Notes: generated from the letters alone by a model not told the origin. A stretch of DNA of 64,000 bases from a virus (IMGVR_UViG_3300035208_002115), one strand, 5' to 3'. Positions 10,813 through 35,014 are shown, counted from the first letter of the stretch. Numbers and translations: made by a program.

Positions 10813-11160
10813 ATGTTTCATACACCACCTAATAATTTACCCCTATCTCTGCGTGTAGCTGCCCAAACAATTGAATTGGATTATATACAAATTACACCAA
10901 CAACCGTTAAACAAAAATTATACTGGTTTATTATATTCAGACCAATAATATATAAAAAAGAACACAATTTAGTTATTGATTTTACACCATCGCAACATTT
11001 TGAAGAATTCTCAGTTAATAAAACCTCGGATATATTAAACAAAAAAATAAGATTAGCATTACAAAAAAATAAGAACGCTGTTTTTTATGTATATTTAATA
11101 TTTGATATTCAACATTATCCATTTTTTTCCATTATAAAAATGGATTACCAAATTAAATAA
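10813..11160 (+). CDS. hypothetical protein
   Basis: 115 aa ORF. Confidence 0.6.
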   Translation: MFHTPPNNLPLSLRVAAQTIELDYIQITPTTVKQKLYWFIIFRPIIYKKEHNLVIDFTPSQHFEEFSVNKTSDILNKKIRLALQKNKNAVFYVYLIFDIQHYPFFSIIKMDYQIK

Positions 11161-11203: not shown

Positions 11204-11650
11204 ATGGGTAAATATGTAAAAGGAAAACAATTCGAGAATAATTCCATAACTTCAAATTTATTTAATTTAACTACTCCGAACTCTGGAGAGACTTTATCTG
11301 GGGCAACTAAAGAATATGCTGATGCGTATGGTTCGGGTAGTATTTTTACTCACAATATAGCAAATTTTGATATGTCATCTACTACTACAACGGAAGATGG
11401 TCAATTAGCATGTGATATACCTTTATTATCTGCGCCAAAAAGTCTTGTAAGAGTTATTATTAATGGATTAGAAATTCAGGTAGGTGTAGGTAAAGAATGT
11501 TATTTTTCTGGTGATAATGGTGTTACAGCCCGTGAAAATGGAGAAGAAACTATTGGAGATTATTTATACTGGAATGGTAGTATTGCAGGTTATGAATTAA
11601 GTGTTTCTGATGATGATGAAATAGATTTTGTATATTTGATAGATAAATAA
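11204..11650 (+). CDS. virion fibre/structural protein, paralog family member 1
   Basis: KGKQFENNSIT, ATKEYAD, LACD...NGL...YFSGDNG...GDYLYWNGS...IDFVYL. Confidence 0.6.
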   Translation: MGKYVKGKQFENNSITSNLFNLTTPNSGETLSGATKEYADAYGSGSIFTHNIANFDMSSTTTTEDGQLACDIPLLSAPKSLVRVIINGLEIQVGVGKECYFSGDNGVTARENGEETIGDYLYWNGSIAGYELSVSDDDEIDFVYLIDK

Positions 11651-30138: not shown

Positions 30139-30168
30139 AAATTAATATATAAAAATAAAAACATCAAT

Positions 30169-32898: not shown

Positions 32899-33432
32899 AT
32901 GAAAAAATTCACTGAAATAATAAACGAACAATTAACATACGATTATGGGTGTGTTATGATTAATTTCGATATTCCAAATTGGAATGACATAATAAAAGAG
33001 ATTGAAAAAGATGATATTTATGATGAAGATGGGTTTGGTCTCGAAAAAGAATCACATATAACACTACTTTTTGGTTACCCTAAAGAAATAGCTGTAAAAG
33101 ATATAAAAAATATCATCGGTAATTTGGATAGTTTTTATATTGAAATGCAAGAAACGTCATTATTCCAAAATGATAATTATGATGTTCTCAAATTTGATGT
33201 GAATCATGACACACTACATGCATTAAATGACTCATTAAAACAATTACCCAACACTTCCACCTTCCCAGATTATCATCCGCATATGACTATCTCATACATC
33301 AAAAAAGGTAGGGGAATTAAATATATAAAAAAATATGATAATTTGATAGTAGCAAAACCGTTAGAAATTGTGTATAGTTTACCTACTGGAACAAAGGAGA
33401 AAAAACAAGTCACCCTTCTTAAATTTAAATAA
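32899..33432 (+). CDS. 2H phosphoesterase (T4 gp57B/Acb1-like) with CTS-like leader
   Basis: MKKFTEIINE; two HxT motifs, HITLLFG and HPHMTISY. Confidence 0.8.
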   Translation: MKKFTEIINEQLTYDYGCVMINFDIPNWNDIIKEIEKDDIYDEDGFGLEKESHITLLFGYPKEIAVKDIKNIIGNLDSFYIEMQETSLFQNDNYDVLKFDVNHDTLHALNDSLKQLPNTSTFPDYHPHMTISYIKKGRGIKYIKKYDNLIVAKPLEIVYSLPTGTKEKKQVTLLKFK

Positions 33433-33848: not shown

Positions 33849-34016
33849 ATGCCAAATAAGAATAAAATAATAATAACATTTAATCCAGTAGATTCTTCTA
33901 TATATGATTACATGGATAGCTGGAGAAATTATATAAATGATGAAAATAAAAAACGGCTTGAAAAATTAAGAGCTGAAAGAAAAGCTAAAATAAAAGAAAT
34001 TTTTAAAAATATATAA
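33849..34016 (+). CDS. C-tag mini-protein (55 aa, not in ORF track)
   Basis: MPNKNKIIITFNPVD...RAERKAKIKEIFKNI; TACATTTG at 33837-33844. Confidence 0.7.
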   Translation: MPNKNKIIITFNPVDSSIYDYMDSWRNYINDENKKRLEKLRAERKAKIKEIFKNI

Positions 34017-34037: not shown

Positions 34038-34193
34038 GTGGAAGAAGAATATTTAAAAACATATAATAAAAGAACCAGTAAAATATTTTCTAATTTAAAA
34101 GAATATTATCGTTCAGATGAAAAATCCTTCAAAATAATTATTTTATTAGAACGATATTTAAAGTTAAAAAGTATTTTCAAAAATTTTGATTAA
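34038..34193 (+). CDS. C-tag mini-protein (51 aa, GTG start, not in ORF track)
   Basis: VEEEYLKHII...LLERYLKLKSIFKNFD. Confidence 0.6.
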   Translation: MEEEYLKTYNKRTSKIFSNLKEYYRSDEKSFKIIILLERYLKLKSIFKNFD

Positions 34194-34198
34194 TTTTT

Positions 34199-34363
34199 AT
34201 GCCAGCATTAATAAGACTTTCAGATTTACAATCTGTCCAACCATTATCAAAACCGAGTGGACATTTACATTATATAGATTTTTTTTATGAAACTATATCA
34301 GAAAAAAGGAAGAAGAAATTAAACGAAATATTTCCAGAATTTAAAAATGAAAACAAAAAGTAA
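34199..34363 (+). CDS. major-capsid-fragment mini-protein with C-tag (54 aa, not in ORF track)
   Basis: MPALIRLSDLQSVQPLSKPSGHLHYIDFFYETISEKRKKKLNEIFPEFKNENKK. Confidence 0.7.
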   Translation: MPALIRLSDLQSVQPLSKPSGHLHYIDFFYETISEKRKKKLNEIFPEFKNENKK

Positions 34364-34556
34364 ATCTAAATTACAACAAATAAATAATTCAATTAATACA
34401 ACAGTGTCAATACCAACTGAACATTTTAATGTTACAGTTAGAGCAATTTATCCTTATGATTATCCAGATTTTAATTATTTTAAAAGAAAAGAAAAACGTG
34501 AACAACGATTAAAAAAATTAAGTGGATTATTCCCAGATTTTAAAGAAAATGTTTAG
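34347..34556 (+). CDS. C-tag mini-protein
   Basis: KREQRLKKLSGLFPDF. Confidence 0.7.
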   Translation: MKTKSKSKLQQINNSINTTVSIPTEHFNVTVRAIYPYDYPDFNYFKRKEKREQRLKKLSGLFPDFKENV

Positions 34557-34836
34557 TCACGAATTATATAATTCAGTTATATCACAGATTGGGGACACTC
34601 CGATTGACGGAGGTGTATATTTACCACTTGATACTTTTTCAGATGTTGATTTTAATAGTATAATTTTTCCAGTGGCGATGAAAATTGCTGCTCAAACAAT
34701 AGGTCTGAATTTAATATCAGTTCAGCCTATGGAACATGGGGTTGATTATGAAAAAATAAAACGAGAAAGAGTACGTGAACAACGAAAGAAAAAAATAGAA
34801 GAAATATTTCCTGAAATGAAAAAACATGAAAAGTAA
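34549..34836 (+). CDS. major-capsid-fragment mini-protein with C-tag
   Basis: FPVAMKIAAQTIGLNLISVQPM, then REQRKKKIEEIFPEM; ATG at 34549 preferred. Confidence 0.72.
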   Translation: MFSHELYNSVISQIGDTPIDGGVYLPLDTFSDVDFNSIIFPVAMKIAAQTIGLNLISVQPMEHGVDYEKIKRERVREQRKKKIEEIFPEMKKHEK

Positions 34837-35014
34837 TTTCACTCTTAATATAATACAAAAAGCTATCCGAGATGGATTTACAACTTTAACAATTGATTGT
34901 GAATTAAATTATGACCAACTATGGTTAAAAGTAAAACGGGAAATTATTCAGGAACATAGAAAACAAAAAATAGAAGAACTATTTCCAGATATAAAAAATA
35001 ATAATAAACTATGA
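34826..35014 (+). CDS. C-tag mini-protein
   Basis: QEHRKQKIEELFPDI. Confidence 0.7.
   Translation: MKSNFTLNIIQKAIRDGFTTLTIDCELNYDQLWLKVKREIIQEHRKQKIEELFPDIKNNNKL

Follow-up and report, generated by a model that had tools for sequence, protein, structure and literature searches.

Gol, a stretch of 29 residues within the first quarter of phage T4 gp23, is the most conserved part of that capsid protein; the isolated Gol peptide binds domains II/III of EF-Tu and triggers Lit cleavage of EF-Tu (PMC3014915). CapRel SJ46 and similar bacterial defences are triggered directly by the major capsid protein (MCP) (PMC9712102; review PMC13728456), so a capsid epitope would be a meaningful bait. In Bodo saltans virus, described in 2018, fragments of the virus's own essential, conserved proteins are fused to a massively repeated module, and the authors propose that these fragments are decoys mimicking the targets of host defence (PMC5871332). 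That virus is eukaryotic, its module is an ankyrin domain rather than the 11-residue helix described here, its fragments derive from DNA polymerase and MutS rather than from a capsid protein, and no selection analysis accompanies them; by analogy it seems the closest described parallel to the present locus, although a decoy role is a proposal there too. SaPI1 CpmB (a satellite's mimic of a scaffold end) and the eukaryotic microProteins are small, consist of an interaction segment only and act by competition. They copy a scaffold or transcription-factor domain and their partners are proven, whereas at the locus described here the parent is the capsid protein and the partner is putative. Finally, the T4 capsid targeting sequence (CTS) is an N-terminal peptide cut off at L-x-E by the head protease.

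The locus described here contains, by alignment, the same capsid segment as the T4 Gol/Lit/EF-Tu exclusion system, in both cases the most conserved block of the family (PMC3014915). In T4 this segment lies within the capsid gene, whereas here it is encoded separately, in two genes that each add the shared C-terminal tag. Like the CTS, the tag is a short common peptide on many unrelated small phage proteins, but it is C-terminal rather than an N-terminal leader. Inspection of the two proteins, P0002 and P0003, revealed no CTS-type N-terminal leader ending in [LIM]-x-E; the start of P0002 (MFSHELYNS) resembles the MCP motif H-x-[IML]-x-E-N but has no Glu at the cleavage position. In the literature searched, which included a keyword look at a November 2026 countermeasure review (PMC13728456), we found neither a phage-encoded capsid-fragment decoy or inhibitor nor a paper describing a class of tagged capsid N-arm mini-genes.

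The window analysed, a stretch of 64,000 nucleotides, corresponds to bases 189370-253369 of the 675,678-bp genome (27% G+C) of an uncultured huge phage. Its MCP gene occupies genome positions 543309-545015 on the minus strand and scores 88-96 bits against Pfam Gp23 (PF07068). The frame encodes 568 aa, of which the first 23 codons (544946-545015, minus strand) are probably untranslated; relatives begin at the equivalent of Met24, and the ATG of this codon has an 8-mer motif, AATATATA, 35 nt ahead of it. Among database records the closest are the metagenomic huge phages LR756501/3 (735 kb), with 62% MCP identity, followed by LR756502, LR745206 and LR756504 (634-642 kb), with about 50%; LR756500, Tenacibaculum phage PTm1 and the Lak phages are further off. 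The MCP profile used below is an 8-member alignment built from the MCPs of this clade, and the MCP block is nearly uniform across the five complete relatives. A preliminary description of the window had picked out two ORFs as copies of overlapping parts of the Gol-equivalent segment of a T4-type MCP, each followed by a shared tag. Both ORFs read as described there, with the ATG at 34549 as the start of the 95-aa ORF backed by orthologs, and the homology, the overlap and the common ending were all upheld by the profile comparisons given below. Features of the locus and of the window are collected in Table 1.

Table 1. Features of the mini-gene row and of the window, in window positions
Feature	Position	Strand	Remarks
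P0002, 95-aa tagged mini-protein: variable head, copy of MCP N-arm helix and first strand, tag	34549-34836	+	
MCP-like block of P0002, residues 38-62, IFPVAMKIAAQTIGLNLISVQPME, corresponding to MCP 109-133	34660-34734	+	
C-terminal tag helix of P0002, R72-K95	34762-34833	+	tag HMM; ortholog identity 0.82
P0003, 54-aa tagged mini-protein: copy of MCP beta-hairpin (strand, QPL..PSG turn, strand), tag	34199-34363	+	
MCP-like block of P0003, residues 2-31, corresponding to MCP 118-147	34202-34291	+	
AATATATA, late-type promoter motif	34008-34015	+	22 nt upstream of GTG at 34038
o34038, 51 aa, tag-like end LKLKSIFKNFD; first gene after the motif	34038-34193	+	GTG start uncertain
o34347, 69-aa tagged mini-protein between P0003 and P0002	34347-34556	+	ortholog in contig L004, dN/dS 0.50
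o34826, 62-aa tagged mini-protein at the end of the row	34826-35014	+	ortholog in contig L004, dN/dS 0.30
o33849, 55 aa, tag-like end RKAKIKEIFKNI; upstream of the promoter motif	33849-34016	+	
Third MCP N-arm copy, 115-aa ORF opening with the block NNLPLSLRVAAQTIELDYIQITP	10813-11160	+	no C-terminal tag

Residues 34-60 of P0002 are 63% identical to residues 105-131 of the phage's own MCP (BLASTP E 4e-9), and the P0002 family profile aligns with the MCP profile over 29 columns (hhalign 97.5%, E 5.5e-12). P0003 is more distant: its residues 9-40 share 31% identity with MCP 125-156 (E 3e-4), and its two-member profile matches the MCP profile at 77% (hhalign E 2e-5). The copied MCP spans are adjacent and overlap, at about residues 107-135 for P0002 and 124-148 for P0003. 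Among the 11,657 ORFs of the genome the best non-self match of P0003 is the MCP, and a tblastn search of 50,697 phage genomes with P0003 gave seven weak matches, all seven inside MCP genes. Against Pfam, the sole match of P0003 is Gp23 (14.4 bits, E 0.025, profile positions 17-49; cut-off 24.4 bits), P0002 has no Gp23 match, and relatives of the mini-proteins score 11.8-16.3 bits at Gp23 positions 3-34, again below the cut-off. Gp23 positions 3-49 are the top, sub-threshold Pfam match of P0003, P0008, P0009, a 72-aa ORF of LR756504 and the corresponding piece of the real MCP. This real piece scores just 12.4 bits on the same positions, compared with 96 bits for the whole MCP, so the mini-proteins fit the general T4-type profile as well as a true capsid protein does. 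The kinship to Gp23 proposed in the preliminary description is thus significant at the level of the clade MCP family but stays below the cut-off in Pfam. The mini-proteins are homologous fragments and not capsid proteins, falling short of the curated Gp23 cut-off across the HK97-fold body.

The MCP-family profile is colinear with full-length T4 gp23 (PDB 6uzc, chain 6uzc_a). It places residues ~109-147 of the phage MCP opposite T4 gp23 ~93-134 (...AIPNLIAFDICGVQPMNSPTGQVFALRAVYG), although the N-terminal domain of this alignment is weak alone (10.6 bits). The alignment of the N-arm block is colinear and consistent with the Pfam Gp23 positions. Judged by these alignments, the copied block is positionally equivalent to the Gol region of T4 gp23, which we take to lie at about residues 94-122, and comprises the N-arm helix and the first beta-hairpin. 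On this mapping P0002 corresponds to the N-arm helix with the first ordered strand and P0003 to the next strand-turn-strand. Both proteins lack the MCP propeptide and the remaining HK97 fold, and in the absence of that fold they are unable to build a shell. A resemblance of the MCP block (residues 75-160, L001:2677-2934) to the IF3 N-domain (A..A...GLDLV.V.P.A.PPV, PDB 6o6d) had an E value of 0.6, was not reproduced with the paralog profile and is probably due to chance.

The equivalence with Gol raises the possibility that P0002 and P0003 are EF-Tu adaptors that serve translation control rather than immunity, the tag carrying the EF-Tu-bound block to a tag reader, for example in late translation or MCP folding. 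EF-Tu binding is the sole known activity of the isolated segment and may extend to all hosts (PMC3014915). It has been shown for T4 and E. coli only, however, and neither P0002 nor P0003 contains all 29 residues of Gol. The tagged ORF that copies the MCP spine helix, described below, would moreover be left unexplained, and it does not fit a reading of the mini-proteins by EF-Tu alone. We therefore regard an adaptor role as highly improbable.

Several residues invariant among the MCPs are kept in the mini-proteins. MCP T121, I122, G123, L126 and P131 are also invariant in the P0002 family, and MCP P131, P135, D143 and Y146 correspond to the invariant P15, P19, D27 and Y30 of P0003. At other positions the two differ: the mini-proteins have the T4-type consensus VQPM/L and PSG, whereas all five clade MCPs have VKP[TS] and [SG]P[KRV] (VKPT/SPK). 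AlphaFold2 predicted for P0002 (pLDDT 58) two helices only, at residues 39-50 and 67-94, and for a 126-aa relative (pLDDT 53) likewise helices only, with no tertiary packing to read in either; helix 67-94 of P0002 spans the tag, at low confidence. On these models P0002 and P0003 are predicted to be mostly unfolded peptides with a short basic helix. The retention of MCP-invariant residues in proteins with no fold of their own points to an external partner, and P0002 and P0003 have most likely been selected to be recognised by a partner that recognises the MCP segment as well.

Comparison with orthologs identifies P0002 and P0003 as real genes under selection. The P0002 orthologs P0004-6 and P0008 have 94-98 aa and are 53-57% identical over their full length, and the P0003 ortholog P0007 (L004:8-163) has 51 aa and is 67-69% identical. 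The 1,556-bp metagenome contig L004 carries P0003, o34347, P0002, o34826 and two downstream genes, all intact; gene order and start/stop overlaps are as in the phage. Nei-Gojobori dN/dS against this one contig is 0.29 for P0003 and 0.43 for P0002, with values for o34347 and o34826 given in Table 1, and 0.07-0.14 for the two genes downstream of the row. Jointly, P0002 and P0003 give 0.37 (bootstrap 95% CI 0.22-0.62; L004 only), and no replicate reaches 1. Mean pairwise identity among the P0002 orthologs is 0.71 in the MCP-like block and 0.82 in the tag, compared with 0.32-0.53 in the flanking head and linker. At residues identical to the MCP, the codon is shared in 8 of 16 cases for P0002 and 4 of 10 for P0003. 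The divergence of synonymous codons indicates that the duplication is old and the likeness upheld at the protein level, and this low codon sharing rules out recent gene conversion or a DNA-level copy of the target.

These observations bear on whether the two ORFs are neutral debris of partial capsid-gene duplications that stayed open by chance. The ORFs are short, the P0003 matches are individually weak, and open frames arise easily in an AT-rich genome. Against this, the orthologs are intact and differ by in-frame indels only, gene overlaps are conserved, conservation is block-wise, dN/dS is well defined below 1, and the family recurs in other genomes. Debris, already disfavoured on these grounds, is the least probable of the readings considered here. 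The preliminary description had itself allowed that the ORFs might be unconserved, decaying fragments; the purifying selection found here indicates that they are not decaying.

The five complete relatives were searched with the MCP block, which revealed extra copies besides each MCP gene; the family is found in at least five further genomes. LR756504 encodes a 72-aa ORF consisting of the block and one or two tag-like motifs (hhalign E 1.6e-5). ORFs of 169 and 179 aa are present in LR745206 and LR756502, and a search for representatives added a 126-aa member, P0009. In LR756501 (L003:2056-3426, from the region around 497 kb of that genome) the block lies near the C-terminal part of a 456-aa ORF, which suggests that it can be grafted onto larger proteins. 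The first ~330 residues of this ORF have no Pfam family match, and for this reason we make no claim of a PolB-like N-terminal part, despite its appearance. A longer-protein word search, an IMG/VR scan and the ESM Atlas returned no matches.

The 126-179-aa forms are colinear with MCP 31-149 (hhalign 99.6%, E 7.3e-25) and retain the MCP propeptide (KKW.P..E..G...W.S.YAE.H) together with an I/M-x-E-N motif. The preliminary description had seen no other capsid similarity beyond the overlapping segments; this holds for P0002 and P0003 themselves but not for the family. The longer forms also contain a 47-residue insert placed exactly between ...VKP and the next strand, that is, in the hairpin turn; the P0002 tag can be aligned with this insert (…ENR[DE]GKIDSI…), which is thus a tag-like helix. 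P0002 covers the block and helix of these forms and ends after the helix, while the P0003 sequence PSG-x-L-x-Y-x-D-F-x-Y matches the strand after the insert (hhalign E 7e-5). The longer forms join N-arm block, tag-like helix and hairpin strand in one chain; the present phage encodes these elements in two genes that flank o34347. By these alignments P0002 and P0003 are two halves of one design, each with its own tag, and, on this sequence evidence, halves of an old family of MCP front-end paralogs rather than independent copies.

Three MCP-like copies are present in the window, the third being the untagged ORF of Table 1 (phmmer E 0.011 within the genome; hhalign 90%, E 1.6e-6, 32 columns against the MCP family). 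This third copy is followed closely by ORFs at 11204 and 11667. Next to the MCP gene lies a tagged ORF of 88 aa (genome 542135-542398) with a match to the spine-helix region of Gp23. Two further ORFs of the genome, both outside the window, show similarity to the MCP. One, of 194 aa at 162323-162904 on the minus strand, has an MCP propeptide-like stretch (FKKWSPIIDEL..., ...YAHYHDISES) followed by TTLPVSLKIL, with a weak phmmer match, and may be the counterpart of the 169-179-aa paralogs of LR745206 and LR756502. The other, of 280 aa at 258348-259187 on the plus strand, has the stretch that follows the predicted MCP cleavage site (…GMGAI.S.QPS..PG…GSGDIG…; phmmer E 2.7e-5) and may be another head protein processed in the manner of the MCP.

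The shared tag has the consensus EERKLKIKEIF and was collected by an iterated HMM at 118 of 1,913 ORF C-termini, the median length of these ORFs being 104 aa. P0002 and P0003 both carry the helix pattern R-K-x-K-[IL]-x-x-[IL]-F about 15 residues or less from the C-terminus. Their own scores of 45.4 and 44.7 bits in the tag model are partly circular because both were among its five seeds; the independent support comes from the 118 of 1,913 ends. No parent protein was identified for the head of o34347. A sub-threshold Pfam match of o34826 to the PolC-type DNA polymerase III N-terminus II (22.7 bits, cut-off 26.3; E 1e-4) could mark another core-protein fragment or be a chance match. The tag was also considered as a scaffold-type capsid-binding end, as the C-termini of the protease-scaffold fusions of the phage and its five relatives resemble it by eye (…IMERFKNI compared with …IKEIFKNI). 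This candidate failed, however: the 118-member HMM ranks the scaffold ends 324th or lower among 1,919, at no more than 1.4 bits.

The mini-gene row follows a copy of the AATATATA motif. Within 70 nt before long ORFs this 8-mer was observed 125 times, compared with 13 expected (9.5-fold enrichment), at a modal spacing of ~21-22 nt from the start codon. Genes with the motif upstream include that of the MCP (where it precedes Met24) and those of the head protease-scaffold fusion, the large terminase and a tail fibre. Ten large ORFs that lack it include no structural gene, and the three of them with a named function encode RNR, a CCA-adding enzyme and a PurA-like protein. From the motif at 34008 onwards, o34038, P0003, o34347, P0002, o34826 and o35011 follow one another with gaps of at most 5 nt or with overlaps. 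The row is probably a late operon co-expressed with the MCP, although the sample is small, and AATATATA may represent a late promoter comparable to T4 TATAAATA. Within the window, examples of AATATATA(A) on the plus strand are those at 30144, 30588, 32279, 32884/32891, 34008 and 36107. The motif also stands ahead of several small accessory genes in the window, including an Acb1-type gene. A sigma-70-type promoter scan was uninformative at 27% GC (41 sites compared with 33 expected).

The next operon upstream of the row encodes a 177-aa protein (32899-33432, plus strand) that exceeds the Pfam cut-offs for Acb1 (anti-CBASS; 29.3 bits) and for 2'-5' RNA ligase/2H (32.2 bits). Its gene is preceded by two overlapping late-type motifs, and the same operon encodes an ASCH protein. 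The mini-gene row is 320 kb away from the head module.

The late-type motif ahead of the row makes an assembly role as open as an immune one. Possible partners of P0002 and P0003 are a host factor that sees new MCP, the components with which the phage assembles its own head (scaffold core, portal or neighbouring MCP) and the capsid machinery of competitors. The last of these would make the mini-proteins weapons against co-infecting T4-type phages, acting as dominant-negative N-arm peptides to which the phage's own MCP is insensitive through its differing key positions. The T4-type consensus of the mini-proteins at positions where all five clade MCPs differ would suit such a role, as would the foreign MCPs that are the best matches of P0003 in phage genomes. 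Late expression, by contrast, would come too late for superinfection exclusion, the 169-aa relative has the same VKP as its own MCP, and the poisoning of assembly by free N-arm peptides is without evidence. A role against other phages thus appears quite unlikely, if somewhat less so than that of an EF-Tu adaptor.

The main rival to a host partner is that P0002 and P0003 regulate the assembly of the phage's own giant head or form minor parts of its prohead. A copy of the N-arm would then compete with or replace MCP N-arms at the scaffold core, the portal or capsomer contacts, and so time polymerisation or help set head size. In T4 heads, gp23 is disordered up to residue 105; this part is turned towards the scaffold core until expansion and later forms an N-arm making inter-capsomer contacts. 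The same region holds the head-length mutations A94V and G97S and the portal anchor Met98 (PMC9546572). The 169/179-aa relatives, with their propeptide and cleavage-type motif, and the late-type promoter motif are consistent with an assembly function. On the other hand, the architecture is different in every relative, unlike that of core morphogenetic genes, the row is remote from the head module and adjoins the Acb1-type gene, P0002 and P0003 have no propeptide, and scaffold C-termini are not recognised by the tag HMM. We consider an assembly role possible but doubtful.

Several of these points favour a host partner instead. The architecture of the family varies between relatives (72, 126, 169/179 and 456 aa), as expected for accessory genes in an arms race, and there are several copies per genome. 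The position of the row, remote from the head module and adjacent to a gene of anti-CBASS type, points the same way, as does the retention in the mini-proteins of the T4-type consensus from which the clade MCPs have departed.

The mimicry, its partner and the role of the tag are what we infer from the homology, selection, family, tag and promoter motif described above. We tentatively propose, as the leading reading, that P0002 and P0003 mimic the nascent MCP N-arm as soluble competitors and so occupy a host factor. Probably transcribed from a late-type promoter concurrently with the capsid protein, they would imitate the newly made, unassembled capsid N-arm. The factor that they occupy, in all likelihood one of the host, would be one that recognises this most conserved part of the capsid protein; candidates are a capsid-sensing defence protein or the EF-Tu surface bound by the T4 Gol peptide. 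The tag would then hold the complex of mini-protein and factor on a putative tag reader.

Several considerations weigh against such mimicry. A mimic bound to an abortive-infection sensor could activate the sensor rather than block it. If the MCP has already diverged at the VQPM/PSG positions, a decoy seems less needed. The propeptide and I/M-x-E-N motif of the longer relatives point to the prohead rather than the cytoplasm, and late co-expression fits an assembly role equally well. In an unlikely variant, the mini-proteins would serve counter-defence as free capsid-segment baits, made in step with the MCP and each wired to a proteome-wide docking helix. Whatever seizes the bait, be it a host sensor or a trap of the EF-Tu/Lit type, would be tethered to one phage hub and neutralised.

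A capsid segment of 25-30 residues, which in T4 is the trigger of Lit, is thus found here as separate, selected genes in several huge phages. If the assembly reading were true, these genes would represent new small regulators of giant-head assembly, itself an unexplored field. The mini-genes provide a clonable reagent for finding out which cellular factor recognises the conserved N-arm of the capsid protein and to what the tag docks.
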